A stretch of DNA of 43,190 nucleotides from an uncultured Thermoplasmata archaeon. Lineage in GTDB: Archaea; Thermoplasmatota; Thermoplasmata; Halarchaeoplasmatales; Halarchaeoplasmataceae. The notes beneath the pieces are model-generated. The model was not told the DNA's origin, did no database searches, and was given only the letters and a program-made list of their open reading frames with translations. This document shows, piece after piece, positions 25,491 through 39,153 of the stretch. The stretch spans positions 1 to 43,190 of the forward strand of contig CAYVTG010000004.1 in NCBI GenBank assembly GCA_964454575.1, read 5' to 3'. Both the position numbers and the translations under genes were made by a program. The number at the start of each line of letters is the position of its first letter. Positions within the stretch are counted from its first letter, which is position 1.

Positions 25491-25695
25491 GCCATCGTAG
25501 CTTTCTCACAATCTAGAACGAAGATTCCAAGAAGCTAAGATGACTCACTCCGTTCGCCATCGTAGCTCAGTCGGAATTTAAACAGCAAATTCCAACAACC
25601 TACGAAGGCTCATTCCATTCGCCATCGTAGCTCACTCGGAAAAACGAACAGATTTTTCCAAGAAGCGACGATTCGTTTCACTCGCCATCGTAGCT
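25491..25695 (+). repeat. Tandem array of tRNA-Thr 5'-end duplications separated by ~52-nt structured units
   Basis: GCCATCGTAGCT starts at 25491, 25556, 25621 and 25684 (the tRNA itself); periods 65/65/63. Confidence 0.92.
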
Positions 25696-25755
25696 TAGCG
25701 GTAGAGCGGCTGGTTTGTAACCAGCAGGTCGGGGGTTCAATCCCCTCCGATGGCT
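25684..25755 (+). tRNA. tRNA-Thr(TGT)
   Basis: Acceptor GCCATCG/CGATGGC, anticodon arm GCTGG-tt TGT aa-CCAGC, T-loop TTCAATC; CCA not encoded; T-rich tract follows. Confidence 0.96.
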
Positions 25756-25765
25756 TCTTTCTTTT

Positions 25766-26069
25766 TAACCCCACTTATCTTGGTTTCTAAACAATGAGGG
25801 CATTTCATGATGAACCTTCCCCCAGTCCTTATCCTCGATATGCCTATAGTTGAAATCCAGGTCTTCTCGAGTGTCTTTGATCGAGAGAGATGAGGAATTT
25901 GTAATTCCTCTAGATCAGAAAGCCGTGGTGTATCTAGATAGATGAAGTTCATCGCAGTTCCTCCGTATAGAGACAGCCTTTTCGATAAGAATTCAGATTT
26001 CTTTATCGAATCTAACATATCACATAATCGCCTCATCTTTTCCGTTATTTCATCCGAGTAACCATTCAT
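25766..26069 (-). pseudogene. AbiEii-type nucleotidyltransferase toxin remnant (50-nt insertion, truncated)
   Basis: LYGGTAMNF...PRLS in one frame continues as EDLDFNYRHIEDKDWG in another frame after 50 nt, then hits a stop near 25766. Confidence 0.85.
25867..25916 (+). mobile_element. 50-nt structured insertion related to the tRNA-array units
   Basis: Removing it rejoins RLS|EDLD. It carries a GA-hairpin-GA motif and GAGGAATT-TGT-AATTCCTC. Confidence 0.65.
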
Positions 26070-26876
26070 TCAAACACCTCTCAGAAGATCTTCTAGATGT
26101 TTTGGTACGTAAAGTCCCCATCTTTTTTTTAATTCGCTGGAAACATCTCGATCGATGTAAACGGGTTTCCATCCAGGAGTCGGTCTTAGGGGTTTTAATT
26201 TTTCTTTTTCGATATGTTCGTAGTAAGGTGATCGATCTCGTAGCATCTCCAAAACATATCCGCACTTCAGTTCTAAAGTCTTGTTATTGTAGCTTGAAAG
26301 TACATCCTTTATGTTCTTTAGAGAGATACCTTTGAGGTTCGCAAGACTTTTGAGACATTCCTCCCAACCTCCGCAGAGATCGGTTCTGGAAAGGCAATCG
26401 ACGAAGGTTCTTTCAAGATCCGTTACTTTCAAACTTGTGTTTTTGTATTCGATGGACGTGATGTGCCCGAGGTGGTGTTTATTTACGACGGGGATGTAAC
26501 CGACCCCTTGAAAATCAAATCGTCTGAACCTATTTTTTTTCGCTACTATGATGAAGATCCTGGTGAAAGCGGAATGTGCCGAACCGTGTAATTCTAACGC
26601 GGTGTGATATCCCAGGGCATCGCATTTTTCGAGTTTGTTGCCGACTAAGTATCGGTCCGCTTGAAAATCTTCTTCCAGTTTGTCCAAAGGAATACCATAG
26701 TACAAGCCTTTCCTGACCTTCTTTAACTTCGCTTCTTTGATGAGCTTGTGTAGATATTTTCTGTAATAATATTCGTCCTCGACATCGAATACCTTTTTTG
26801 AGATATGCTTCAGGTCTTGGACGTTGACGACCTTCCTCTTCAGGACCTCTTGGTAAAACCGTTCTTTTTTGTTCAT
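26070..26876 (-). CDS. AbiEi-type antitoxin / transcriptional regulator
   Basis: N-terminal wHTH (L.KVRKGLY), YHTALELHG, VTDLERTFVDCL.R..LCGG.EE, GY.LE; directly upstream of the abiEii remnant. Confidence 0.88.
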   Translation of the reverse strand: MNKKERFYQEVLKRKVVNVQDLKHISKKVFDVEDEYYYRKYLHKLIKEAKLKKVRKGLYYGIPLDKLEEDFQADRYLVGNKLEKCDALGYHTALELHGSAHSAFTRIFIIVAKKNRFRRFDFQGVGYIPVVNKHHLGHITSIEYKNTSLKVTDLERTFVDCLSRTDLCGGWEECLKSLANLKGISLKNIKDVLSSYNNKTLELKCGYVLEMLRDRSPYYEHIEKEKLKPLRPTPGWKPVYIDRDVSSELKKRWGLYVPKHLEDLLRGV

Positions 26877-26904
26877 CTGGATCCCCTTTTGTAGATGTGA
26901 TGCA

Positions 26905-26995
26905 TTATGTTCTCTTATATTGGACATTAAAGAACATACTTACATATAAGTTTTTTGTGGTTCTGTTACGTAATGTTCTACCATATGAGACATTA
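26905..26995. promoter_or_regulatory. Two related 25-bp imperfect inverted repeats flanking the abiEi TATA box
   Basis: TTATGTTCTCTTATATTGGACATTA (26905-26929) and TAATGTTCTACCATATGAGACATTA (26971-26995), 19/25 identical; minus-strand CTTATATG lies between them. Confidence 0.65.
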
Positions 26996-27148
26996 TATGA
27001 AACGATCACATTCAATTTCATCGAAAAAAAGTTCGGTGTGGTCTGCCGACGTGCGCTGTGAGAGATGGAAGTGTTCTTGATGTTATCCCTATACCCCGTT
27101 GCTTGCTGCGGCTGGGAGGTTCATTAATAAACGTGATTTTTAAAGAGC

Positions 27149-27183
27149 GTTCTGGATAGCGAATGCAGTGAGCTATTGTGAAC
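27149..27183 (+). repeat. Solo GA-NN-GNA-NN-GA hairpin of the tRNA-array family
   Basis: GTTC.. ATAGC GA AT GCA GT GA GCTAT ..GAAC. Confidence 0.6.
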
Positions 27184-27263
27184 AGTTGCTATTTTTATAC
27201 CCCTTCATAAACCCATAAACCTTAAAGAAAGAATTATATACAAGTTGTTTCATATTCTCGTTC

Positions 27264-29411
27264 ATGGTGAAAATAACTAGCTTTTGGGTCAAACAGGCCT
27301 GCGTGTTACTGGTGATCCTCATGCTATCCAGTATGGTCGTTGTAGGGTCGGAAGGCGATTATGGACTGTATTACGAGGATCCGCAGGAATACCTAGATTT
27401 TCCGGATGTGGACCTGAAGAGTTTGAGCTCACGGGTGGAAAATGACTATCTCGTCATCGAATTGAAAACATACGGTAAAATATCGTACGAACCCGAGTAC
27501 TCCTATTCCATATATAACTCATATTCTTCATCCGAACAATACTGGTTTGACTTTTATTTTAGCGATGGCGAAGGTACCTTATATTACGAATCAGGGGACT
27601 TTTTTATAGAACTAAACAACGTATGGGATGTTTCCGACGACACCCTTACTGTGCGGGTCTCACTTCAATACATCTTTACACCTGAACAATTCGACCTGAG
27701 CGCATCTGCAGATTATTTCCCTTTGGATAATTTGTACGGATATATTTCAGATAATATCAATTGGGAACCCTTTTCATTCTTCGACAGTTCGTACAACTTT
27801 GACGAAGCGATCCCCATGGATATACCAGGTACTGCGGGAGGAATGCTGGAAGAAGAGGATAGCTGCGTTTACACTTTTGAACTTGAGGCCGGGACGGGCG
27901 TACAGATCGAGATGACGGCGAGTTTCAAAAGCTGGCCCTATTTTACCATATTCAACTCCGAAAAACAATATATTACCAGTTCGATGACGGAGGGAAGGAG
28001 CAGCACGTTGACCTTTGTACCCCAAACAGATGGAATTTACTATCTCGGTATCGATGGCTGGTCGGTATCGGGAAGATACAAGATAACAACATCCTTGCGT
28101 GGTCTGAGCGGAGAGGATTATCAAAAAGGATCGCAAGAAAATGTTCCATGGCAAACCGGAGATAGTTGGACAGCGGGTGTCTATATCAGTACAGACGAAA
28201 TTATGTCTATGATGTTAGCCGGTGACAAGTACTGGGAGGACGAGTTTATACATAAATACTCCTCGGATGGTGGTTTGGCCCATTTTATGGTTGTCACCTA
28301 CGCAGGCAAAGAGGGCGACGGCTACAAGTTCGACTACGAGAGCAGACTTTACTGCGACATGAGCCTGAACATGACTTTCCCCTCAACGATGTATTATTGG
28401 GAGAGTGACGATAGTTTCGAAGAGTACATGAACTTCAGCGTTATTGCAGACATCAGCTACGAAGGCAGCATCTGGTTGGGATTTTACGAGAACGGACAAG
28501 GCGATGCCTATTACGGGATAGAAAAACAGACCATAAGTCTGAACGCTTCGTTCGATATATATTCTGAGATGACTTTTTCCGACTTCTGTTCGGGTACGGA
28601 TTGTGGCTATTACAGATTCGAGTCTCGTAGTATAAATAAAGTTGATCTTGATCTTACAAAAGAGAACACTCCCGGGATACCGTTTTTACCGGCAGAGGAC
28701 AGATCCGTTGAAGTAGATAAAAAAGTTTCCACAACCGTCACGGGCCATTCTTATACACATACCCGAACCAGTTTCAATTCTTCAGATGCCGACTTTTTGG
28801 ATTTTTACACGGACGATATGGATCATACATATGATAATGATTTTAACGACTCATACACATGGTATTACATCCTTGAATATGATTCCGAAACGAAGATAGC
28901 TGAAACAACTCCTGCCCTCACAGATCCGTTTTCATATCTCTTCATGGGTATGTATCAATCCTACGGATATGTCGACGGCGTGGCCATCGAGGACTCACAT
29001 AATGAATGGTTGGACCAACCCCCGTCAAAAGCAACCTACCATCCCGATAGCGGCTTCTATTCTGCCTTCGAACTTCCACTGACCCCATTCGGCAGTAGCG
29101 GCGTGCCGATGGATGCATCAGTTGGTGGAGGCTTTATGCTCAGTTCGCTCGCAATGACGGATATCTCACCGGGCCTATCCATTGGAGGCACTTCTCAAGA
29201 TGAAGCAAATTTATTCTTTGATGATCCAGAAGAATACATGAGTATGAAGGAAGCTGGACAAGCCGGTTCTGATCCCCTTCCATTCATAATCATCTCTCTG
29301 GCCCTTGTTTTTATAGCCGCTGTATCTGTGGTGTTTGCCTGTGAGCTTCGTAAGATGAACGCACAGCAAAAAGAAGAGGTAGAAACACCTTATGAATACG
29401 GGGAGGAATAA
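27264..29411 (+). CDS. Large acidic secreted/surface protein with PPC-like beta domain and C-terminal TM anchor
   Basis: Signal peptide; YTFELEAG..VQI, F.PQTDG.YYLGI and GRY.I resemble the pre-peptidase C-terminal domain; D/E/Y/S-rich; terminal TM helix. Confidence 0.65.
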   Translation: MVKITSFWVKQACVLLVILMLSSMVVVGSEGDYGLYYEDPQEYLDFPDVDLKSLSSRVENDYLVIELKTYGKISYEPEYSYSIYNSYSSSEQYWFDFYFSDGEGTLYYESGDFFIELNNVWDVSDDTLTVRVSLQYIFTPEQFDLSASADYFPLDNLYGYISDNINWEPFSFFDSSYNFDEAIPMDIPGTAGGMLEEEDSCVYTFELEAGTGVQIEMTASFKSWPYFTIFNSEKQYITSSMTEGRSSTLTFVPQTDGIYYLGIDGWSVSGRYKITTSLRGLSGEDYQKGSQENVPWQTGDSWTAGVYISTDEIMSMMLAGDKYWEDEFIHKYSSDGGLAHFMVVTYAGKEGDGYKFDYESRLYCDMSLNMTFPSTMYYWESDDSFEEYMNFSVIADISYEGSIWLGFYENGQGDAYYGIEKQTISLNASFDIYSEMTFSDFCSGTDCGYYRFESRSINKVDLDLTKENTPGIPFLPAEDRSVEVDKKVSTTVTGHSYTHTRTSFNSSDADFLDFYTDDMDHTYDNDFNDSYTWYYILEYDSETKIAETTPALTDPFSYLFMGMYQSYGYVDGVAIEDSHNEWLDQPPSKATYHPDSGFYSAFELPLTPFGSSGVPMDASVGGGFMLSSLAMTDISPGLSIGGTSQDEANLFFDDPEEYMSMKEAGQAGSDPLPFIIISLALVFIAAVSVVFACELRKMNAQQKEEVETPYEYGEE

Positions 29412-29516
29412 CAGAGTTGGAAGTATTCATGATAAATATAGGCATTCAATCCAACGGATTCTACCTTCTAAAACAGTAGTAAAATTTATTAACTAAATAA
29501 TGTATATCGTTATTAA

Positions 29517-30278
29517 ATGAGCAAAATTTACCACCTTACACCGAACGAGCAGTGCCTGATGGATATCGCCGCAGACGCGGATGTGATCGTCACCGAGGAT
29601 ATCATCCAAGCTTTACAGGACGAAATCCCTACCCAGAGTGTGAGGAATGCACTGTCGTCTCTTGCGGAAAAAGGACATATCTTCCGTGTTAAGAGAGGTA
29701 TATATCTACGCTGTGAGGAACCGGGTTCACCGGTGATAGAGGATCCGAAACAGTTGGCACTTCACATATTCGAAGGATACATCGGTTTTTCCTCTGCACT
29801 ACAACATTGGGGATTGCTTGAATACGAATCCTTCGACGTTTTCGTAGTATCCAAGAACAAAAGTGGCAGCAGAGATATCGGCGAATATGTGATACATTCA
29901 GTTTCCATGGGCGAAAAGGCTCAAGGTATGGTATTCGACAGAGGGATATACGTTTCAACGTTAGAGAAGACGATTTTCGACTGCATATACAAACCTCAGC
30001 ACGCAGGGGGCTATCCGCTCGTCGTCAGAGCCATTGCAGAATCGGATCCGGACTGGAAAAAAGTTCGTCACTGGTTCCACCTGCTGGCAAGTGATTCGCT
30101 TTTTCAGAGAGCCGGTTACCTACTCTCCATAGCGGGAAATGCACCGGGATGGTTACTGGATGATTTCAGATCTGAGTTGAAACACAGATCACGATTAGAC
30201 CCTTCAGGGAGAAACAAAGGCCGGTACATAAAAGAGTGGGAACTGATAGATAATGTGGAGGTATGGGATTTTGGTTAA
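29517..30278 (+). CDS. AbiEi-type antitoxin
   Basis: wHTH (RVKRGIY), YIGFSSAL.HWGL, STLEKTIFDC..KP.HAGG, RAGYLL. Confidence 0.88.
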   Translation: MSKIYHLTPNEQCLMDIAADADVIVTEDIIQALQDEIPTQSVRNALSSLAEKGHIFRVKRGIYLRCEEPGSPVIEDPKQLALHIFEGYIGFSSALQHWGLLEYESFDVFVVSKNKSGSRDIGEYVIHSVSMGEKAQGMVFDRGIYVSTLEKTIFDCIYKPQHAGGYPLVVRAIAESDPDWKKVRHWFHLLASDSLFQRAGYLLSIAGNAPGWLLDDFRSELKHRSRLDPSGRNKGRYIKEWELIDNVEVWDFG

Positions 30279-31050
30279 GACAGAGCGTACCATAAGGCAG
30301 ATATCCGCAAGATCAGGACTCGGTCTGAAATTCATCTCTAAGGATATGTTCCTGACAGATGTGATAAAATATCTGGAAAGCGCGCTGGATGACTCATATG
30401 TACTCAAAGGAGGTACGGCGATATCCCGTGCAGGATATCTATCCAATCCGAGATTTTCCAAGGACATAGACCTGGATCATTACGGAGAGAACGATCAACA
30501 TAAAACGGCCGATCAGCTCTTCGATATGTTGAAAGATCTCGATAACTTTTCCATAAAAAAACCGAGATTCCAGGGAGTATCCATACGGTGCGATGCTTAC
30601 TTTGAAAATCACTTTGGAGAGAAGGACAGGATCAGGGTCGAAACCACTTCTCTCGAAGGTAATCCACCGAATGAAGAAAAAGCATCTAAAACACTGCTCC
30701 AATCTCCCTTCTGTTTGGGTAAAGCAAGCCTGATACGCACATATTCCAAGGAGATACTTTTCGTTCAGAAGATCGATGCCCTGTCGGGAAGGATGGACGG
30801 TAAAGATATCTTCGATCTGGTAGGCATGTGGTCACAAGGGATCTCACCGGAGAAATTAACGAATATTGAAGATAAGAGTGCAGATGAAATTGTAGATAGA
30901 GCTTTGATCAATCTGAAGAAGATGAAATCTGACATAAACAGCATAGGTAACTCTGCGAACCATTTCATACCTAGACGGGAAAGACCCAACTGGAAGATAA
31001 TGGCGGCTGAACTTGAGACCATATTGAAAGACCTCAGGGCGCAACCATAA
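30271..31050 (+). CDS. AbiEii-type nucleotidyltransferase toxin
   Basis: LKGGTA, RFSKDIDL, K..AL..R..GKD.FDL; TTG start after GGAGGT, overlapping the abiEi stop. Confidence 0.88.
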   Translation: MVKTERTIRQISARSGLGLKFISKDMFLTDVIKYLESALDDSYVLKGGTAISRAGYLSNPRFSKDIDLDHYGENDQHKTADQLFDMLKDLDNFSIKKPRFQGVSIRCDAYFENHFGEKDRIRVETTSLEGNPPNEEKASKTLLQSPFCLGKASLIRTYSKEILFVQKIDALSGRMDGKDIFDLVGMWSQGISPEKLTNIEDKSADEIVDRALINLKKMKSDINSIGNSANHFIPRRERPNWKIMAAELETILKDLRAQP

Positions 31051-31058
31051 AACTCCCG

Positions 31059-32036
31059 TCAGTACCCTCTTTCCAAGTCCACAACGTTCCGCTCTTTGCC
31101 TTTGTTCAGATCGTTCAATATATCGGCTAGGTCGTCCATACGCTTTTTCTCTCTGCCCTCAACGTGCGTCGACATGTGAGGGCTGAACAATACATTATCG
31201 AAACGATGCAGCGGGTACTCGGATGGAAATGTGTTGGTCCGTGACTCTACGTCCGGTGGATATATCCACCATGTGTCGATGGCGGCACCACCGATTTTAC
31301 CAGATTCAAGAGCGTCGTAGATAGCTTCTTCGTCTATCACAGGACCTCTACCCACATTGACGATATGAACACCGTCTTTCATGGAGCCGAATTCTTTGTG
31401 ACCCAGCATACCTTCGGTCTCTTCGGTCAAAGGCAGCGTGACTACGATGAAGTCTGCTTCCGGTAATAAATCCGGTAATTCATCATTCTTTGCGAGATGA
31501 TCTATCTCCGGCGCTACACCCCCGCTACGATTCACAGCCGTAACCTTCATCCCAAAAGCTTTGCCTATCTTAGCCACCGCTTTACCTACTGCGCCGTATC
31601 CGAGTACCAATAGATATTTCTCCTCCAAGGACACACCCATAGAGTGCTCGTATCGTGGGGACCAATCTCCCTTCTTCATCTTCTCGTGAACAGGACACAA
31701 CCGCTTGGCGGAAGCGAGCAGTAGTGCCCATGCGTGCTCCGCCACGTAGCCGTAATTGAAATGAGAATTGATGATAGTTAACCCAGGGTGATCCGGCAGA
31801 ACTGTTTTGTCCTGTGAAGGTATACCTGCAAAGGGTATGATCACATACTTCAGCTTCGCCGCTCTTTCCAAAAATTCTTTTGGAATTCGTGCTCCGATGA
31901 TAGCATGGAATTCATCTGCCCGCGACACGAGTTCATCCTCCGTCGTGATATTGACGATCTCTATACCGTCGTCTAGTTTTTCTCTAAGATGTTCAAGTAG
32001 ATCTTCTTCCTTTTGATCCTTGTACAATACTTTCAT
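31059..32036 (-). CDS. D-isomer-specific 2-hydroxyacid dehydrogenase
   Basis: VAEHA, GYGAVG, LPLT.ET, NVGRG, AAID.W, SPH. Confidence 0.92.
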   Translation of the reverse strand: MKVLYKDQKEEDLLEHLREKLDDGIEIVNITTEDELVSRADEFHAIIGARIPKEFLERAAKLKYVIIPFAGIPSQDKTVLPDHPGLTIINSHFNYGYVAEHAWALLLASAKRLCPVHEKMKKGDWSPRYEHSMGVSLEEKYLLVLGYGAVGKAVAKIGKAFGMKVTAVNRSGGVAPEIDHLAKNDELPDLLPEADFIVVTLPLTEETEGMLGHKEFGSMKDGVHIVNVGRGPVIDEEAIYDALESGKIGGAAIDTWWIYPPDVESRTNTFPSEYPLHRFDNVLFSPHMSTHVEGREKKRMDDLADILNDLNKGKERNVVDLERGY

Positions 32037-32119
32037 CTATTTTCGGTGAATACTTACAGTAATAAATATATCACCCCTGCAGCGAAGAAGTAATATATCC
32101 CCGTACGAGTCCAAGACCA

Positions 32120-32311
32120 ATGAATATCACCGTTAAAGGAAAGAAAGAACAGGAATTCCCAAATGGAACTACAGTTGAAGATGTGATCGAATCGCTTGGA
32201 TTTCACAAAGATTCTGTGATAGTTTTATTGGACGATACACCGATCCCTATCGATCAGGAACTCGAAGATGGGGCTGAGATCAAGGTCATCCCTGTTGTTT
32301 CCGGTGGATAG
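32120..32311 (+). CDS. Ubiquitin-like sulfur carrier (ThiS/MoaD/SAMP family)
   Basis: 63-aa beta-grasp protein ending in VVSGG. Confidence 0.88.
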   Translation: MNITVKGKKEQEFPNGTTVEDVIESLGFHKDSVIVLLDDTPIPIDQELEDGAEIKVIPVVSGG

Positions 32312-33122
32312 GCTCCCTCTTGGGTAGTCTCAAAATATTCATTATGTTCTCGTGGAATTCAGGCATCAGCTCGAAGACTGCGAAAAGTAATATCATCAAT
32401 ACGATGACAGAGCCGGTCTTAGCGATCTGATTGTGTGCCATATCGAAGGATGTGATACCTTCGTAGCTAAGATATATAACAAGAACGTTACGAGCTACAT
32501 TGGCTATGTACAATGCCGGCAGCACGATCAACAGAGCTTTGATCTTTTGCGCTTTAACCGCAGTGGTGGTATATATCATGGAGAACGCCGGTGCAAAGGT
32601 TTGAAGCGCCGTGCATGCAAGGATTATATTGATGCCCGATCCCTGTATCGAGACCATAAGGTCTTTGTTATTTACTCGATACCACATTGGATTCCCTGCA
32701 TAATTTATAGGTCCGGAGGTAAAGGAATACCCCATCCACTGCAGCACCGCTGCGGTATGATCCGCCACCACTTTGATGAGTGCTCCGGATACAGCCGGTA
32801 CTCTCTGTATCAAGTAATAGATCAACATAGCTATTGATATCGAACCTGCCAGGAATCTCATCACTTCGGGATCTTCGGACCACTCTCGGGATAGGTATTC
32901 GTGGTATGCGAAGTAAACAAAGAGTGGCAATGCTATCAAGCACAATGCGGCGTTTACATGGTCCGCGATCGAGAGGAAATAAGGCGTTTCTGCTACCCAA
33001 AACGATCCGAGTAGAACATATGCCGTTATCCGGGTTTCGTGCTTAAATCGTTTCCAGAAGCACCCGTACAGCATCAGGATAATTCCGATCCAGAGGAAAA
33101 CGTCTGTGTACCTGAGTAACAT
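32286..33122 (-). CDS. artA: Archaeosortase A
   Basis: Multi-pass membrane protein with IILACT (catalytic Cys), N.ARN and F.MAHN..AK.GS. Confidence 0.82.
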   Translation of the reverse strand: MLLRYTDVFLWIGIILMLYGCFWKRFKHETRITAYVLLGSFWVAETPYFLSIADHVNAALCLIALPLFVYFAYHEYLSREWSEDPEVMRFLAGSISIAMLIYYLIQRVPAVSGALIKVVADHTAAVLQWMGYSFTSGPINYAGNPMWYRVNNKDLMVSIQGSGINIILACTALQTFAPAFSMIYTTTAVKAQKIKALLIVLPALYIANVARNVLVIYLSYEGITSFDMAHNQIAKTGSVIVLMILLFAVFELMPEFHENIMNILRLPKREPIHRKQQG

Positions 33123-33178
33123 CTTATGACTCCTATTATCACTAACTTAGCTACTAACTTGTAGATAAAGATAACGTA

Positions 33179-33251
33179 TAGCCCCGCCCGGATTCGAACC
33201 GGGGACTCAGGCTCCAAAGGCCTGAATGATTGACCGCTACACTACGGGGCT
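33179..33251 (-). tRNA. tRNA-Gln(TTG)
   Basis: Acceptor AGCCCCG/CGGGGCT (A1-U72, typical of archaeal tRNA-Gln), anticodon arm CAGGC-ct TTG ga-GCCTG, T-loop TTCGAAT. Confidence 0.96.
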
Positions 33252-33382
33252 AGTGAACGAAGTGAGCTAGTGCCGTAGAAGGAGGAATCTGTGATTCCTG
33301 CGCACTACGGGGCTTTTGTGTTGCAAAACCCCCGAGTATTTGGAATTGCTACTCAATTCCGAAACACTACGGGGCTTTTGTG
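33240..33382 (-). repeat. Tandem array of tRNA-Gln 5'-end duplications separated by ~50-nt structured units
   Basis: Top-strand CACTACGGGGCT at 33240 (tRNA), 33303 and 33365; periods 63/62. Confidence 0.9.
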
Positions 33383-33426
33383 GAACTTTGCACTCAGTTG
33401 AGACAGTGGTCTTTAATAAATATTTT

Positions 33427-35166
33427 TCATAAGAACAGCACTATCAGCGTTGTCGCAAGAGATTGTACTGCGAAAGTCAATGCAAGTGTAAGTGGTACCA
33501 TCTGGTAGATGGTCTCGGCCACCGCGTTCAAACGGTGTGAACCAGTGGGACCCATGAGTGAAAAGTTACACAGTTCTCCGGTGAGCACACCCATCTGAAC
33601 AAGCTCTAGATCAGATATGGCTCTTTCAGTTACTTCACGTACATGATCTTTGATCTCGTTATGATCCATCACTTCTCCAACCGGATTGTAATCCTTAGTA
33701 AGTGTATTGACCTCATGGCTGTCGGATGTCATCACTTCGGAAACATCTATTATATCGGATATCTCTTCCTGGATAGCCTCTCTTAATCCTTGAACCATGT
33801 TGTTACCATCGATAAGAATGAAGGCATTCTTTTTACCATCGGCCTCGAAGACTGCAGCTTTGATACCTTCTCCACCTATTCCGTCAGACTTTTTTAATCC
33901 TTTTTTAGCCGCGACACCAAGTTTCACATCTGTTTTTTTCAACTCTTTGACATCGTTCATCAGATCGTTTGTGACACCCATCAAGCTCCTGTAGCGTCTA
34001 GAGGGATAATATAACTCTAGTGCACCCCGTTGGATACAGTTGTGAGTATCGACGAGTGCCATATCAAGGAAGCCTTTGTTTACAGCTTTCAAGCTGATTA
34101 TCTCTCCTACAGGTGCATCTATGTCTTCGGTAGGCTTGGGAGAAAAAGATGCAGTTAAAAATAGTCCATCGCCGAACATCTGAGCACCTCCTGCAACCTG
34201 TTTGTATTTAGTTAAAAATGAAGTCCCTTTCCGAGAATATTTAAAGTCATTGAAGCGTTTATCTATATCCTCTGTCAATAACTTACAATCCTTTTCCTTT
34301 ATAGGATTTTGTACATGTGTCGACGGGCCGTGGAACGTGAAAGTCATACCGAATTTATCCTCTAACTCTTCAGCCACTATTTCACTTAATCTTGAACCGG
34401 CTATGCCTTTGATCGGACCCGGATGGATGCACGGTACAACGAATAACCCCTTCGATCCTCTTTTCGATTTGAAGGAGAAAACAGTATATTTTACATCTCC
34501 TTTTATCGCGGTTTTCTTGAATACATCCTCAAGTTGTACCTCACCCACTTCTTTTCCTTTGAGTACTTGAAATGCGATCCTCAGCATGTCCATGGTGGAT
34601 ATACCGAAATCCCTTAGAAAAGGCCTGTTTACGATGGCCATGAAAACCACTATCGATGTGAGTCCTATCAGAGAGATTACGAAGAAATAGATTATATCCA
34701 AAAGATTTATACGATAATAATAATGGATGATGGGAAGTGCTATAATAGATTGGAAAAATGCATATGGAAGAGCTTTGAATACGTGTGCGATAAACAAAGT
34801 TCGGATTATCAGGTATCTCAAAGACAAGGGAACTGCATAAACTGTGATCAATATGATCTTAGTACTCAAACTGAAATTCAAGTAGATCAGAGATAAAAAT
34901 ATTATCACTCCCAAAGATACGATGGCTATCAAAGTAGATTGCCCGAAGTTTATATCCTCTTGATAACCCTTCAGTAAGGGCATCGTGATAGCTGCGAGAA
35001 ATGTAGGGATAAACAACAAGAAAAAAGTCTGGACAAGGCCTTGGACATCGTTTGAAAATATGATCAAACCGGCGACAAGACTCAATATCAACATCGAAGG
35101 TATCTGTATGTAGAGTGGTGGAGACTTAAAAAAATTCAATCTGTGTTTGTGTGCGTGTACAAGCAC
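33427..35166 (-). CDS. DUF2070 membrane protein
   Basis: N-terminal TM helices, then HPGP, H..STH..NP, DTHN, DGNN, TSDSH.VN and a C-terminal TM helix. Confidence 0.85.
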   Translation of the reverse strand: MLVHAHKHRLNFFKSPPLYIQIPSMLILSLVAGLIIFSNDVQGLVQTFFLLFIPTFLAAITMPLLKGYQEDINFGQSTLIAIVSLGVIIFLSLIYLNFSLSTKIILITVYAVPLSLRYLIIRTLFIAHVFKALPYAFFQSIIALPIIHYYYRINLLDIIYFFVISLIGLTSIVVFMAIVNRPFLRDFGISTMDMLRIAFQVLKGKEVGEVQLEDVFKKTAIKGDVKYTVFSFKSKRGSKGLFVVPCIHPGPIKGIAGSRLSEIVAEELEDKFGMTFTFHGPSTHVQNPIKEKDCKLLTEDIDKRFNDFKYSRKGTSFLTKYKQVAGGAQMFGDGLFLTASFSPKPTEDIDAPVGEIISLKAVNKGFLDMALVDTHNCIQRGALELYYPSRRYRSLMGVTNDLMNDVKELKKTDVKLGVAAKKGLKKSDGIGGEGIKAAVFEADGKKNAFILIDGNNMVQGLREAIQEEISDIIDVSEVMTSDSHEVNTLTKDYNPVGEVMDHNEIKDHVREVTERAISDLELVQMGVLTGELCNFSLMGPTGSHRLNAVAETIYQMVPLTLALTFAVQSLATTLIVLFL

Positions 35167-35192
35167 GGGATCTATTACATCTTCTTTTTTGT

Positions 35193-35930
35193 CTAACTCT
35201 TTATCTGCGATATCAAACCCTCTATCGTTTTCTTCGTCCCTTTTGTTTCTTCGATGACCGTTCCGGTAACTATCACATCTGCACCGGCCTTGGCTACCGC
35301 TCGTGCTTGTTCCAGAGTTCGTATCCCTCCCCCCACTATGAGGGGTAATCCAACTTCTTCTTTGACCGCTTTGATCATCTCCACGGGTACGTGTTCTGTT
35401 GCACCGGATCCGGCCTCTAGGTAAATTAGCTTCATACCGAAGTATTTTGCTGCCAGTGCATAGTCCACGGCGAGTTGAGAGTCATCCCGCGGTATCAGGT
35501 CCGCTTTTCCCACTTTACCGACGGTCATACCGGGCTCCACCAAGAGGTATGCCATACCCAACGGCTCTATCCCCATCTTCTTTATCGCCGGTGCACCCTT
35601 TCTTTGTTCTCCGATTATCTTGTTTATATCAGTTGAGTTCAGCATACTCATGAAATAGATGGCATCTGCGTATTGAGAGATAGCTCCGGCATGTGTTGGG
35701 AATAATATCACCGGTATGTCAACTACTTCTTTGATGGCCTTTACCGTGTTGTCAACGTTCTCTTTAACCACACCAGTTGAACCTCCTACCATCACAGCAT
35801 CACTGCCGGCTTCCTCTAGTGTAACTGCTATCACTGCAGCATCTTTTGGAGGCTGCTCGTCGGGATCGATGAGTCCCATATGCATCTTTCCGTTTTTTAT
35901 CCTGGTGTTTATGTACTCCATGACTTTCAT
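35193..35930 (-). CDS. Geranylgeranylglyceryl phosphate synthase (GGGPS)
   Basis: H..LIDPD, MVGGSTG, PVILFP, YLEAGSGA, VGGGIR, VTGT; start at MKVMEY. Confidence 0.95.
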   Translation of the reverse strand: MKVMEYINTRIKNGKMHMGLIDPDEQPPKDAAVIAVTLEEAGSDAVMVGGSTGVVKENVDNTVKAIKEVVDIPVILFPTHAGAISQYADAIYFMSMLNSTDINKIIGEQRKGAPAIKKMGIEPLGMAYLLVEPGMTVGKVGKADLIPRDDSQLAVDYALAAKYFGMKLIYLEAGSGATEHVPVEMIKAVKEEVGLPLIVGGGIRTLEQARAVAKAGADVIVTGTVIEETKGTKKTIEGLISQIKS

Positions 35931-36751
35931 AGTATACCTCCGAAAAGGAAGGCCAGTAAAGCAACGACCATACCTAGTTTGATGAAATTCTGGGTTCTTT
36001 TCGGTTCTTTGAAGATAAACAGCGAGTATATAAAGATTATATCTGCAGCGATCACCAGTATCAGATAATGTACCGAGAGCAGCCCTTGGATATATGGGTA
36101 AGGCGATATGCCCACTGCAGCGATGATGGTCACTGCGGCTGATATCTTCGCCCACTTTACACCTATCCTTTTTGGCAGTGTCTTCCTTGTAAAATCACCC
36201 CTAATATCCTGAATATCCTTTGCTATCTCACGGCCTACGGTTGCCAGGAAGGCTAGCACCCCCAAGACCAATGGAACCTCTAGATGGCCGTATATGGCCC
36301 CGGCGAAGACGAACAAAGACCCGGTCAACCAAGCGATGGATGCGTTCCCCGGTAGGCCCGTGCTTTTCAATCTTAATTCATAGGATATCATCAGGACTAC
36401 GCTGATCACGACTATTATCTGCGGAAGATACCAAGGAAGAAACAGCGACAGCAGTATGGAAATAACAAACAATGCTGCTGCGAAACGAAGTGCTCCTTCG
36501 GGACTCACATCCCCTGCCGGTATCGGTCTTTCCGGATGATTGATCAGGTCCTCCTCTCTGTCATAGTAATCGTTCAGGGCGTTTCCAGCGGCGGTGAAGC
36601 TCGAAACCACCAGCATCCCGAGTATGGTGAATACAGCCCTTTCCAAGGTTGGACTTTCCAATCCGTATAAGGTAACCATGATTATGGGTATGCTGACCGA
36701 GGCCAGTATGCAATTCAATGGTCTAGCCAATCGGATATATGGATTTTTCAT
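35927..36751 (-). CDS. Digeranylgeranylglyceryl phosphate synthase (UbiA family)
   Basis: RP.N, NDYYD...D.INHP.RPIPAG, REI.KDI.D..GD, TLP; ATGA overlap with GGGPS. Confidence 0.92.
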   Translation of the reverse strand: MKNPYIRLARPLNCILASVSIPIIMVTLYGLESPTLERAVFTILGMLVVSSFTAAGNALNDYYDREEDLINHPERPIPAGDVSPEGALRFAAALFVISILLSLFLPWYLPQIIVVISVVLMISYELRLKSTGLPGNASIAWLTGSLFVFAGAIYGHLEVPLVLGVLAFLATVGREIAKDIQDIRGDFTRKTLPKRIGVKWAKISAAVTIIAAVGISPYPYIQGLLSVHYLILVIAADIIFIYSLFIFKEPKRTQNFIKLGMVVALLAFLFGGIL

Positions 36752-36856
36752 CCTATGTGTCGAAGACCTCGACTATTTTATATTTTTGGCAGTTTTTCCA
36801 CCGATTTGACAGTAATGTTTTAATACAGAGTATTGTTAGCCATTCATCTTCTCAGC

Positions 36857-36917
<61 letters not shown>

Positions 36918-36932
<15 letters not shown>

Positions 36933-37187
36933 TACCAATTTTTCATTTTTCGAGGCCGGGATTTGTTTCACGAGCTAAGACACTTCTTAGCGAGCGGTTA
37001 GAATGTTGAACGAAGTGAGGCATTCTGAGTTGAATCCGGCCGGGGCGCCATACCGATTTTTCATTTTTCGAGGCCGGGATTTGTTTCACGAACATGAATA
37101 CGTTTTATTCATGTGAGCGCACTGAATAATGAGCGTAGCGAGTTATTGAGTACAGAAGGCTGGCCGGGGCGCCATACCAATTTTCAT
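36918..37187 (+). repeat. Tandem array of tRNA-Asp 3'-end duplications with structured variable units
   Basis: GGCCGGGGCGCCATACC at 36920, 37038 and 37162 (periods 118/124); the first two copies share ~55 nt. Confidence 0.92.
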
Positions 37188-37236
37188 CTACCTGACAGAT
37201 AAATCTCTCATTTTGGGAAATGAAGAACCAGCCTTA

Positions 37237-38139
37237 TCACTTCCAGTCAACGTACTTTTTGTCCCTGAGTTCCATTATCAGATTTATAGCGGCGGTGGCG
37301 CCTTCACCCACCGATGCACTTATCTGTCTCACTCCACCCGTGCAGTCGCCGGCTGCATAAACCCGAGGCATACCGGTGAACTGTTTATCATCCACTACCA
37401 GTGTATTGTCTTCGATAGGTATCCCTAGACTCTTGGCGAAATCAAGAGAACCGCTGGTACCTTCAGCTATCATAAGTCCGTCCATTTTTTCGACACCATA
37501 CGGCATCTCCAATCCTTCTAATTCATCCTTACCCAGCACACTGATGATTTCGTCCTTTACCACAGGTATATCTTCAATTTTCAGTTTTTTAAGGAGACTG
37601 TCAGCAGCATCCAGGTCGTTACCGTTGGTGAATATTTTGATATCTGAGGTATACTCAAATAATTCTAAAGCCTCTTTGATCACCAGGTCTTCGGAACCGA
37701 TGAGTCCTACTTTGCGGTCCTTGAACAGAGGGGCGTCACATGTAACACAGTAGCTAACACCTTTTCCCTCCAGTTCTTCGATCCCCTCCAGTAAGGGTTT
37801 TTTATGCTGAATTCCCGGTGCTATGATCAGACCTTTTCCTTTATAAGAGTTTTCAGCGGTTTTGACTACGTATTTATCACCTTCGAGCTTAACCAACAGT
37901 GCCCTGTCTCCAACAACTACAGTCCCAAATCGTTCAGCTTGATTTATACCTCTGTCCAGTAATTCCGAGCCGGAGATTCCTTCCGGAAAACCCAAGTAGT
38001 TGTCTATCTTTTTCGCCTTTCTAAGCAGCTTATCCGGCTCATCCAATATCACCGTAGAAAGCTCCGCTCGGGATGTGTATATCGCCGCTGAAAGTCCTGC
38101 TGGCCCGCCTCCGATCACGATAACGTCATAGTCCTTCAT
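37237..38139 (-). CDS. trxB: Thioredoxin-disulfide reductase family FAD oxidoreductase
   Basis: IGGGPAGLSAA, NYLGF, GVSYCVTCD, YAAGD; start at MKDYDV. Confidence 0.88.
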   Translation of the reverse strand: MKDYDVIVIGGGPAGLSAAIYTSRAELSTVILDEPDKLLRKAKKIDNYLGFPEGISGSELLDRGINQAERFGTVVVGDRALLVKLEGDKYVVKTAENSYKGKGLIIAPGIQHKKPLLEGIEELEGKGVSYCVTCDAPLFKDRKVGLIGSEDLVIKEALELFEYTSDIKIFTNGNDLDAADSLLKKLKIEDIPVVKDEIISVLGKDELEGLEMPYGVEKMDGLMIAEGTSGSLDFAKSLGIPIEDNTLVVDDKQFTGMPRVYAAGDCTGGVRQISASVGEGATAAINLIMELRDKKYVDWK

Positions 38140-38257
38140 ATGTTTGTCCTCGCATCTATTATCCATCTTGTGTGAATTAAAGGTATCGCAGAAAACGGCG
38201 TTAACCGACGTTAACATTAAATACATCGTATATAATTTAGTTTTAAAAGGTGATAAA

Positions 38258-38959
38258 ATGAACGAAAATGGAGAGGAAAAGTCATTCAATATATTGGTGG
38301 TAGACGACGATAAAGATCTGCGTGAGCTGCTGGTCACGTTGATCGGTGGTACTAAAAAGATCAACGCTAAGGTAGTATCCGCATCGTCCGGGGAAGAGGC
38401 CTTGGAAAGATTAGAATCTGAAAACTACGACCTGATATTGGTCGACCAGCGAATGGGCGGTATCTCCGGTACTGAATTGCTATCTACTGTTGCAGAAGAA
38501 CATCCTGAAACCGTCAGGATATTGATCACCGGTTATTCCGATGTAACCACGGCTAAGGACGCCATCAACAAAGCAAAAGTACATCACTATTTGGAGAAAC
38601 CCTGCGACAATGAGGAGATCATATCCACTATATACAGAGAGCTTGAAAGGATGATAGAGAGGAAATCGGCTGATGTATTTAAGGTGGATACCAAAGACGA
38701 AGCTGTTGGACTGTTAGAAGATTTCAAAGAAACTTTTTCGAGTATCTCCAAAATGCATCCCGGTATAGTATCTCTATCCGGAGAAAAGAAGGAAGGTCGT
38801 TATAGTATCCTTATCGAATTCGATGATCCTTCGGAATTTAACAAGTTTTCATTTGAGTTGAGGGAAAACGAAGAGCTACTAAACGTATACAAAGCACGCA
38901 TAGAGGATTTACAGGTATTCGAGAATAGATATCTGGTGACGGTGTCCCTAAAACCTTAG
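38258..38959 (+). CDS. Response regulator receiver-domain protein
   Basis: ILVVDDD, LVDQRM..ISG, ITGY, KP; ATG follows GGTGAT; C-terminal domain not recognised. Confidence 0.88.
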   Translation: MNENGEEKSFNILVVDDDKDLRELLVTLIGGTKKINAKVVSASSGEEALERLESENYDLILVDQRMGGISGTELLSTVAEEHPETVRILITGYSDVTTAKDAINKAKVHHYLEKPCDNEEIISTIYRELERMIERKSADVFKVDTKDEAVGLLEDFKETFSSISKMHPGIVSLSGEKKEGRYSILIEFDDPSEFNKFSFELRENEELLNVYKARIEDLQVFENRYLVTVSLKP

Positions 38960-39095
38960 TTATCTATCCAAGGATGTATCCTATTCATGTGCAGGAAAGC
39001 ATATGTACAAGAACCACGCCTTCGTAGCGATCTCTCAGAGTACTCTAAATTCACCAGTATATGTGGACTGGTGGCAGGTCCATTTTTTAGACAGT

Positions 39096-39119
39096 GATCT
39101 GTTTCACGAACATGGATAC
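39096..39119 (+). repeat. Distal degenerate copy of the tRNA-Asp array repeat
   Basis: GATCTGTTTCACGAACATGGATAC versus GATTTGTTTCACGAACATGAATAC (37078-37101), 22/24 identical. Confidence 0.75.
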
Positions 39120-39153
39120 TATGGTGATTTTCCCATCAGACGAATTTCTGACT

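Follow-up and report, generated by a model that had tools for sequence, protein, structure and literature searches.

Stacked structured units at the ends of tRNA genes in an uncultured family of Thermoplasmata

The contig CAYVTG010000004.1 (assembly GCA_964454575.1), from an uncultured Thermoplasmata archaeon of the Halarchaeoplasmataceae, poses the question of why tRNA genes should be accompanied by stacked copies of their own ends, and of what might place them there. This stretch of 43,190 nt, called the window in what follows, is the complete contig C4 of a metagenome-assembled genome (G000; 1.87 Mb, 133 contigs, 94% complete). ARAGORN finds three tRNA genes in it, tRNA-Thr(TGT), tRNA-Gln(TTG), and tRNA-Asp(GTC), and all three carry arrays of short units that duplicate a gene end, on the 5' side of tRNA-Thr and tRNA-Gln and on the 3' side of tRNA-Asp. 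A preliminary description, made from the letters of the window, had claimed end-duplicating tandem arrays at all three genes, and these are borne out. The units look like an undescribed way of adding DNA beside tRNA genes.

Duplicated tRNA ends in the window and across the genome

Duplication is restricted to the two ends of tRNA genes. Among the 27 tRNAs of G000 on which these counts are based, 10 have an exact extra copy of an end 11-mer within 800 nt, and 13 have an extra copy of an end 13-mer if one mismatch is allowed. All 18 copies of the latter kind lie 63-272 nt from the gene, and none was found beyond 272 nt within 15 kb. A position scan for extra direct 10-mers finds them most often for tRNA positions 1-13, in 8-10 tRNAs, and for the final ~15 nt, in 5-8; internal 10-mers have extra copies at only 0-3 tRNAs. 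The 5' copies span position -2/1 to the D-loop, while the 3' copies extend from the T-loop or T-stem through the 3' end into the trailer. The units that hold these copies are gene-less, ~50-132 nt long, located directly at the 5' or 3' boundary of the tRNA, and stacked head to tail. Read outward from the tRNA, their plan is a short linker, an inverted end copy, 1-3 hairpins, and a direct end copy of 10-20 nt; the inverted copy is clear in the 5' units and present in some 3' units. The proposed unit family targeted to tRNA ends is real, and its tie to these ends holds genome-wide.

In the window, tRNA-Thr (25684..25755, plus strand; ARAGORN and the Rfam tRNA model) anchors a 5' array in which the first 12-13 nt of the gene are repeated upstream at 25491, 25556, and 25621, at spacings of 65, 65, and 63 nt. 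The distal unit 1 (25491..25555, minus strand, fold z -2.0) consists of a copy of tRNA positions 1-12, a hairpin, an inverted copy, and a tail, and its orthologue is the sole Thr unit in G004 and G002. Unit 2 (25556..25620, minus strand) has the order 5'-end copy, GGAATTT..AAATTCC hairpin, inverted copy, and tail; its DNA fold has z -5.3 on the plus strand and -7.7 on the minus strand, and it is also present in G001. Unit 3 (25621..25683, minus strand) adjoins the tRNA, and most of it falls in a 63-nt segment (25610-25672) that is missing from G001 and one related strain.

The 5' array of tRNA-Gln (33178..33252, minus strand; ARAGORN and Rfam tRNA) repeats the first ~12 nt of the gene upstream at 33304 and 33366, a spacing of 62-63 nt. 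The unit adjoining the tRNA (33253..33315, plus strand), of class B, is made up of a GAACGAAGTGAG tail, an inverted 5'-end copy, a GGAATC..GATTCC hairpin, and a direct copy. By eye its interior is letter-identical in G001 and G004, and a second tRNA-Gln of the genome, on contig C97, has a near-identical copy (92-94% over 128-133 nt; 93% over 137 nt). The distal unit (33316..33377, plus strand; DNA fold z -4.6 and -5.5) belongs to class A.

At tRNA-Asp (36857..36932, plus strand; ARAGORN and Rfam tRNA) the array lies on the 3' side, where the last ~15 nt of the gene are repeated at 37036 and 37162 (118 and 124 nt), and the first two end copies reach 56 nt at 98% identity. Unit 1 (36933..37050, plus strand) matches R1, a covariance model described below, at 36967-37037 with 81.5 bits. 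It runs from a T-rich spacer through an inverted T-loop/T-stem copy (GGCCGGGATTTG), TTTCACGAG, and hairpin 1 to GAGCG, hairpin 2 with a GAACGAAGTGA tip, TGAATCC, and the tRNA 3'-end copy. Unit 2 (37051..37184, plus strand; R1 match at 37085-37160, 65.8 bits), which ends in the terminal 3'-end copy at 37162-37184, has an orthologue in G001.

Support for the arrays beyond the assembly comes from Logan contigs: they agree with it, spanning the Gln array (33217-33428) with zero differences as well as parts of the Thr and Asp arrays. An assembly artefact is ruled out by these contigs and by the occurrence of the same architecture in dozens of independent metagenome-assembled genomes. Short-read assemblies do seem to be broken by the arrays; many tRNA genes of G000 sit on contigs of 3-10 kb (the short contigs C70-C113), and there is a 100-N scaffold gap inside the tRNA-Lys array on C44 (L015 2472-2571). 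Two intron-bearing tRNAs were missed by ARAGORN, tRNA-Lys on C44 and one tRNA-Ser on C20.

The genes around the arrays of the window are ordinary archaeal ones, including those for GGGP synthase, UbiA prenyltransferase, DUF2070, rubrerythrin, and FtsZ, together with two AbiE toxin-antitoxin loci. One of these has an intact AbiEi/AbiEii pair (29517-31050). At the other, an AbiEi gene (26070-26927) is followed by a 110-aa open reading frame (ORF; 25737-26069, minus strand) that overlaps the tRNA-Thr 3' end and has only a weak match to the AbiEii N-terminus (Pfam E 0.065). From its sequence, this ORF looks like a toxin gene cut off at the tRNA boundary.

Architecture, polarity, and distribution of the units

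Written in the sense of the tRNA, a 5' unit begins with a 9-23-nt copy of the tRNA 5' end, which stops at or within the D-loop, and continues with a central hairpin, in many cases GGAA..TTCC, then with an inverted copy that is imperfect, and ends in a tail of 9-25 nt. All 14 of the 5' units of 40-100 nt in G000 fold alike (median z -2.5), and in 11 of them the downstream inverted copy pairs with 6 or more of the first 10 nt. The DNA folds of the window units have z of -2.7 to -7.7, and those of 5' units overall -2.0 to -7.7. The inverted copy also follows its tRNA across genera: as the tRNA-Gln end changes from ..CCGTAG to ..CCGTGG and ..CGGTGG, the class-B unit reads CTACGG, CCACGG, and CCACCG (changes at positions 6 and 9), keeping by eye a two-base mismatch opposite C4 and C5. 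Both the pairing and this parallel change uphold the idea that one arm of each unit is complementary to its local target, and the GGAA..TTCC hairpin attributed to the units is found in those of Thr, Gln, and Ala. The tail resembles a leader motif, [CT]TCA[CT], that occurs within 18 nt upstream of 13/27 tRNAs against a background of 6.5%. This motif, often with TCGTT nearby, is also present at tRNAs that have no array, and could represent either a leader (or promoter-proximal) element or what is left of lost units.

For the 3' units we built R1, a covariance model from 17 aligned units of 7 tRNAs of G000 and 9 relatives, which are a curated choice and not a census. At tRNA-Asp, at least 8 genera keep the plan of T-rich spacer, inverted T-loop/T-stem copy, TTTCACGAG, hairpin 1 (7-9 bp, of unrelated sequences), GAGCG, hairpin 2 with a GA-NN-NNN-NN-GA tip, nTGAATCC, and tRNA 3'-end copy. 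In hairpin 2 of the alignment, 92.4% of cells are paired against 74.5% in shuffles (0/500 reach the observed value) and 34-47% in slid controls, and 9/12 pairs have changed on both sides. The preliminary description had called the units conserved in structure and not in sequence. What is conserved is indeed mainly structure, but the 3' units do share TTCACGAG, GAGCG, and TTAGAAT..ATTCTGA.

R1 finds 13 places in G000 at E<=0.01. Eleven of these are strong and all lie in tRNA 3' arrays, 9 with a co-oriented upstream tRNA on the contig and 2 at a contig start; the other two are a weak solo match at 27120-27190 and a partial match at a contig start. The units follow at least seven tRNAs (tRNA-Asp, -Glu, -Lys, -Cys, -Arg-GCG, -Arg-TCT, and the tRNA of C30), and each of the nine with a tRNA on the contig is succeeded by 10-18 nt identical to the 3' end of its own tRNA, compared with 5-9 nt for the best match to any other. 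In the relatives, 7/9 best R1 matches come directly after a tRNA found by ARAGORN (Asp, Cys, Thr, Gly, or Arg-TCG), with cognate end copies, judged by eye, at 9/9. A second type of 3' unit, TTCAACTTG..GCAGCGAAAAA..TTTTTGG, is common to tRNA-Lys, tRNA-Arg, and a third tRNA. On contig C12 (33630-35742), tandem 101-nt units like those 3' of tRNA-Ser genes are interrupted by an insertion sequence, which carries a long ORF for a transposase, and the contig terminates within the array.

Three solo copies had been proposed in the window in addition to the arrays. The one at 27120..27190 (plus strand), with GAGCG and hairpin 2 bearing a GAATGCAGTGA tip, is supported as a 3'-unit relic by its weak R1 match (E 3.7e-4) and has neither an adjoining tRNA nor an end copy. 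The second, at 39060..39120 (plus strand), 1.9 kb past the Asp array, is by eye a probable relic of a unit left end, with CCA, a T run, a degenerate inverted copy, TTTCACGA, and the start of hairpin 1 in that order, and has no R1 match. Both relics hint at gene-carrying segments formerly bounded by units. The third, placed at 25867 in abiEii, comes down to a GGAAT..ATTCC hairpin, GAGGAATTTGTAATTCCTC (25886..25910, no strand assigned; z -2.2 and -2.7), within the truncated AbiEii-like ORF, and its membership of the unit family is doubtful.

A motif GA-NN-GNA-N'N'-GA with compensatory changes had been put forward as the signature of the whole family. G000 holds 143 copies of it, where 10 shuffles gave 65-110, and 17 of these copies are at most 500 nt from tRNAs, a zone that makes up 1.6% of the genome; its two inner pairs covary in the 17 aligned 3' units. 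On the 5' side, by contrast, the motif is not exclusive to the units because the tail overlaps the leader motif that array-less tRNAs also have. A chance origin of the arrays is ruled out by the concentration of motifs near tRNAs, the end-restricted duplication, and the narrow range of copy distances.

The motif strand was also said to read away from the tRNA, and from the coordinates it does so in 15 of the 17 copies near tRNAs. Two further observations concern polarity. Hairpin 2 of the 3' units, read on the tRNA-sense strand, has 25 G.T against 1 A.C, and of 48 distinct 5' units (from G000 and relatives) 40 give the better fold on the antisense strand. Counted on the sense strand, single mismatches enclosed in the 5' units number 18 A.C and 8 G.T; the raw 5'-unit G.U count (109 vs 26) overstates the polarity since the sense strand is C/A-rich. 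Because of the G.T excess in hairpin 2, the antisense-biased 5' folds, and the orientation of the motif, the folded strand points outward on both sides of the tRNA.

A covariance-model scan of the kind suggested beforehand shows that R1 is specific to the family of the window: all 17 sampled family genomes have it, with 2-14 matches each, versus 4 single weak matches in the 133 genomes scanned from 28 further families of the class. End copies of other sequences than R1 are present at 7/15 tRNAs examined in five genomes of families f5, f9, f12, f13, and f17, and at 0/15 in five mostly complete genomes of f4, f6, f11, f14, and f18. Close relatives differ in unit number and include empty sites, both of which had been named as things to look for. 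There are 3 Thr units in G000, 2 in G001, 1 in each of G004 and G002, 3 or more in G005, and 0 in G012, and the Thr arrays of other genera have 1-2 units of other sequence. The Asp site is empty in G047 and G042, and the Gln site in G011 and in G002, which is of the same genus. A contig of run X3, from a related strain, skips exactly 63 nt (25609 joined to 25673), which is the G001 arrangement, and a second X3 contig has a different one with a joint that goes back 47; each joint rests on one low-depth assembled contig.

The Gln units fall into three classes of 70-75% identity that recur across genera in differing order: A-B at both Gln genes of G000, C-B-A in G001 and G004, B-A-B in G015, and B-C-B-A in G007. 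This class tally scores G012 as unit-less, though by eye it has one degenerate unit. In G003, tRNA-Asp is followed by a 1.28-kb insert with a lipoprotein-like ORF, which begins with the left end of a unit and has flanking repeats of ~26 nt.

Explanations for the arrays

No recombinase, transposase, reverse transcriptase (RT), or Cas1 gene was found in the window, as had been noted from the start; such matches in G000 are all on other contigs (C44, C133, C5, C21, C93, and C82). Co-occurrence profiling of Y1 transposases, RT, Cas1, and tyrosine recombinases leaves a short XerA-like tyrosine recombinase as the only candidate present in all genomes (44/44 of the family). In G000 this 183-aa protein is encoded on C44 (9029-9577, minus strand; L015 1450-2001), divergently from the intron-bearing tRNA-Lys, and has the catalytic domain only: it matches positions 90-263 of the 263 of the archaeal XerA model and has no N-terminal domain. 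Orthologues of at least 68% identity are found in f5, f9, f12, f13, and f17, in which 7/15 tRNAs have end copies, whereas the families with 0/15 (f4, f6, f11, f14, and f18) do not have the short gene. Other families of the class mostly have proteins of 260-360 aa; family f10 has short XerA-like frames too (182-194 aa, 46-50% identity). These cross-family tallies include G132 (f11), on which the conclusions do not depend. Strict co-occurrence of R1 with the short gene was not found, as R1 detected nothing in f5, f9, f12, f13, and f17. A second tyrosine recombinase of G000 is a sporadic 374-aa integrase on the 1.7-kb contig C133. The integron-integrase model TIGR02249 (cut-off 265 bits) gives at best 222.8 bits, on C133 and not beside any array, and 128 bits for the 183-aa protein.

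We tentatively favor a reading in which the units are non-autonomous cassettes that enter tRNA ends when their folded single strand recombines there. We prefer it because the architecture resembles that of integron attC sites and the folded attP of the CTX phage, because one strand is favored, because units stack at the anchor, and because the recombinase alone is in all genomes. Further points in its favor are the restriction of duplication to gene ends, the one R1 core followed by cognate end copies at many tRNAs, the paired and covarying folds, the gains, losses, and empty sites among relatives, the contrast of 7/15 against 0/15 tRNAs between families with and without the short XerA, and the G003 insert as a case of cargo. 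Under this proposal, the inverted and direct copies would form a stem mimicking the tRNA end in its double-stranded form, a recombinase supplied in trans by the host would exchange one strand between the folded cassette and the tRNA end, and replication would resolve the product into one extra unit and one extra tRNA-end copy. The two ends of a tRNA gene are mutually inverted through the acceptor stem, so that machinery reading this repeat would be expected to act in mirror image, and the repeat would explain the mirror-image arrays on the 5' and 3' sides. The enzyme might be the catalytic-domain-only XerA-like recombinase, a role that is a guess.

A number of points weigh against cassette recombination. 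Neither excised units nor junctions nor a recombination event turned up in the assembled contigs, and a single-stranded intermediate is assumed because duplex circles of 63-130 bp seem implausible to us. The arrays show no fixed cut, their repeats ranging from 10 to 26 nt and reaching 56 nt between the two Asp units. In X3, the borders of the missing 63 nt fall where inverted copy meets tail, outside the repeated tRNA end, and of nine R1 units just three have an upstream inverted copy that clearly matches their own tRNA. The differing orders of Gln units do not prove excision, because loss from a longer B-A-B-like array explains them. One recombinase would need to handle more than 10 different end sequences. 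As for the enzyme, the short XerA could be no more than the resolvase of chromosome dimers, the xerA/tRNA-Lys locus is not supported as a master platform since the tRNA-Lys there is array-less in several genera, and the contrast of 7/15 against 0/15 tRNAs with end copies is not independent evidence because the families with a short XerA are probably one clade. Finally, plain recombination does not explain how a core gains an inverted copy of each new tRNA end.

This unexplained gain keeps alive a second explanation, self-templated DNA writing, which we consider unlikely but worth weighing in full. Here no unit would travel, and a 3' end at the tRNA boundary would be extended outward by repeated fold-back synthesis or template switching, so that the tRNA end is written by turns inverted and direct, new palindromes arise, and the arms come from the local target. 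The arrays do alternate end copy, inverted copy, and end copy with loops between, the same core carries arms matching each tRNA, and the hairpin stems of related units are wholly different yet paired. An outward folded strand on both sides, with mismatches that are mostly G.T, fits a nascent strand, although the G.T excess could come equally from selection for pairing and the C/A-rich sense strand inflates the raw 5'-unit count. Writing of this kind is hard to square with conserved cores (TTCACGAG, GAGCG, and TTAGAAT..ATTCTGA) at many tRNAs in 17/17 family genomes and with the recurrence of Gln unit classes across genera. No candidate polymerase was found for it, and RT is rare in the family (4/44 genomes). 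A retro-element origin was rejected on that rarity and because RT is not among the genes of G000.

A rather poorer prospect, in our judgment, is that the units act as RNA, either as small structured molecules or as modules of RNA processing. The 3' units would then be short genes or trailers ending in a mimic of the tRNA 3' end, the 5' units minihelix-like leaders, and the duplicated ends would have a function of their own, for example as decoys for, or substrates of, tRNA-targeting toxins, RNase P, tRNase Z, or the CCA-adding enzyme. In favor of this, hairpin 2 covaries strongly and has a conserved U.G pair (11/17), and in 9/9 cases with a tRNA on the contig the 3' units are co-oriented with it. 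By eye, the 3' units are preceded by AT-rich spacers and followed by T runs, which are possible promoters and terminators. Unit classes are kept across genera, and the 5' units resemble an acceptor stem with one arm. Against this, the presence, absence, and copy number of units vary among close relatives, and oligo-T runs separate the tRNA from each 3' unit. The 5' units do not fit co-transcription with the tRNA because it is the antisense strand that folds better, in the 40 of 48 units and in the 18 to 8 mismatches given above. A check for described RNA families agrees: at E up to 1, the Rfam 15 covariance models match nothing but tRNAs in five array loci (16.9 kb). Box C/D sRNAs, K-turns, and hammerheads, which also lack an Rfam match, were dropped by eye as the C box, 3-nt bulge, and CUGANGA core are missing. 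A tRNA intron, whose bulge-helix-bulge has a 4-bp helix between two 3-nt bulges at the borders of the intervening sequence, was dropped by eye only; a self-complementary AGCT is conceivable as the helix in Thr, with nothing comparable in Gln.

It is improbable that the arrays are scars of tyrosine-integrase elements at tRNAs, left when internal deletion spared the element ends and att repeats and local duplication followed. Copies that run from the T-loop past the tRNA end do match classic att sites, the 1.28-kb insert of G003 has the same left end as the units, and there are relics beside AbiE genes. Normal integrases also occur, as the sporadic one on C133 and as an ordinary 295-aa integrase gene in G018 that lies directly after a tRNA-Arg(TCG) and 1 kb away from a tRNA-Gln carrying a 5' array (contig C29; L079 3532-4531), and the latter indicates that classical tRNA-targeted integrative elements coexist with the small units. 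Scars, however, would have to account for well-kept end copies none of which is at kilobase distance and for a uniform, covarying architecture at many tRNAs in 17/17 genomes. Decay is not expected to give 5' arrays with inverted copies, and an integrase of the C133 type is sporadic.

Single-strand transposition by HUH (Y1) enzymes had been suggested in the preliminary description, and we regard it as very improbable. The units would then be miniature elements mobilized by TnpA or by a transposase associated with repetitive extragenic palindromic (REP) sequences (RAYT), derived from IS200/IS605 or akin to REP sequences and their inverted doublets (REPINs). Hairpins with GNA loops and G.A brackets fit such a view, and many tRNA 5' ends contain GTAG, which the accessible part of one source gives as the tag of a REP superfamily (PMC3733652). 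G000 has two Y1_Tnp genes, one of them ~300 nt past the tRNA-Glu array, but both belong to identical copies of an ordinary 705-bp IS200-type insertion sequence with a 193-aa frame (approximately C5:17741-18445 and C21:23799-24503), whose end hairpins, CCCCAA..TTGGGG, are unlike the units. The C5 copy starts ~100-130 nt after tRNA-Glu and its short 3' array. Y1_Tnp is found in 24/44 family genomes versus 17/17 for R1, and the 20/44 without it include G047 and G007, the latter 95% complete with 12 R1 matches. The units are moreover restricted to tRNA ends, and elements of the IS200/IS605 kind do not duplicate their target. The proposed link is weak. As a separate observation on transposon-related genes, a 388-aa ORF resembling TnpB (Cas12f1-like_TNB) lies 1.7 kb upstream of a tRNA-Arg(TCG) with a 5' array (G000:C93:908-1093; L019).

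Cas1-type, casposase-like integration, with target duplication at tRNA ends giving tandem miniature casposons, we hold to be the most improbable of all, for although a casposase of Aciduliprofundum boonei targets a tRNA 3' end (PMC5137440, in the portion available), G000 at 94% completeness has no Cas1, only 13/44 family genomes have it, repeat length varies from 10 to 26 nt, and the unit ends show no terminal inverted repeats by eye. Casposons are not known to form 5' arrays.

Comparison with known systems and significance

Integrons gather cassettes head to tail at one site, with attC sites conserved in structure, one folded active strand, and entry next to the anchor. The tRNA arrays resemble them in their head-to-tail order at an anchor, in structure-conserved sites, and in an outer stem formed from inverted and direct core copies; ORF-less cassettes exist in integrons as well. 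The anchor, however, is different, since integrons have one attI beside intI and the units here occur at the ends of many tRNAs and on both sides. The core is 10-20 nt long and tRNA-specific, and by eye not RYYYAAC/GTTRRRY, and IntI is missing, its best match falling below the model cut-off. Integron cassettes usually carry one ORF, whereas the units here are 52-132 nt and ORF-less, except for the 1.28-kb insert of G003.

Integrative mobile elements exploiting Xer recombination (IMEX), such as the CTX phage, have a folded single strand integrated by Xer recombinases, whereby the target is re-created and tandem arrays build up. The cassette reading proposed here shares with them a folded strand that imitates a duplex target and a host Xer-type recombinase acting in trans. 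It departs from them in that the target is a tRNA end and not dif, the units are gene-less and 50-130 nt long, and the Xer-like protein has no N-terminal domain.

Casposons offer a further comparison, and one from Aciduliprofundum boonei, which we take to be a relative within the same phylum as the archaeon studied here. In the available part of the source, the A. boonei casposase needs the T-loop region, produces a 15-bp duplication, and allows tandem arrays with the newest element at the tRNA (PMC5137440). The tRNA 3'-end target, the T-loop region, target duplication, and possible tandem arrays are thus common ground, as far as that portion of the source goes. Cas1, genes, and terminal inverted repeats are lacking here, the repeat length is variable, and there are 5' arrays.

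REP sequences and REPINs are short imperfect palindromes, often inverted doublets, that are thought to act as single-strand hairpins. They are dispersed between genes, fixed in sequence, and without target copies, unlike the units, which sit at tRNA ends and have tRNA-specific arms; nor is there a single-copy Y1 gene flanked by units, and Y1 genes do not co-occur with them. Miniatures of IS200/IS605 would differ as well, since the ends of the resident insertion sequence are of another kind and the units are flanked by tRNA-end copies. We know of no description of tRNA-targeted integrative elements at 5' ends with inverted copies. Such elements resemble the arrays in a duplicated identity block that runs from a tRNA loop to the gene end, but they are kilobases long with their own integrase and do not form stacks of structured units of 50-130 nt. 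Both comparisons draw on portions of published sources, namely two on REP/REPIN elements and RAYT (PMC3116915, PMC3733652) and one in which tRNA-targeted elements leave partial tRNA-end duplicates at insert borders (PMC9897764).

Arrays like these were not found described in the full-text literature searched, supplementary tables, which could hold relevant cases, being outside its scope. The accessible portions of work on tRNA fragments (PMC9897764), archaeal integrons (PMC9668308), casposon targeting (PMC5137440), and Asgard tRNA introns (bioRxiv 10.64898/2026.10.13.758758) contain no stacked structured units at tRNA ends.

For these uncultured Thermoplasmata, unit content is a fine-scale strain marker, and the arrays create tRNA fragments that annotation tools may miscall. 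It is possible, if somewhat doubtful, that every tRNA gene end of the clade is a platform for a new insertion system guided by the acceptor stem, either by integron-like recombination of single-stranded DNA with the tRNA ends in the role of attI on both sides of the gene, or by self-templated outward synthesis of hairpin cassettes with arms copied from the target. In both cases the site-specific insertion would belong to a new class. If the units are actively inserted, they would represent a compact DNA-adding system acting at defined, conserved sites, the two ends of the tRNA gene, with a target specificity apparently written in a short complementary arm. Such a system would bear on the ability of a small, catalytic-domain-only recombinase to act on folded DNA, on the origin of integron-like and Xer single-strand recombination in archaea, and on tRNA genes as universal landing sites.

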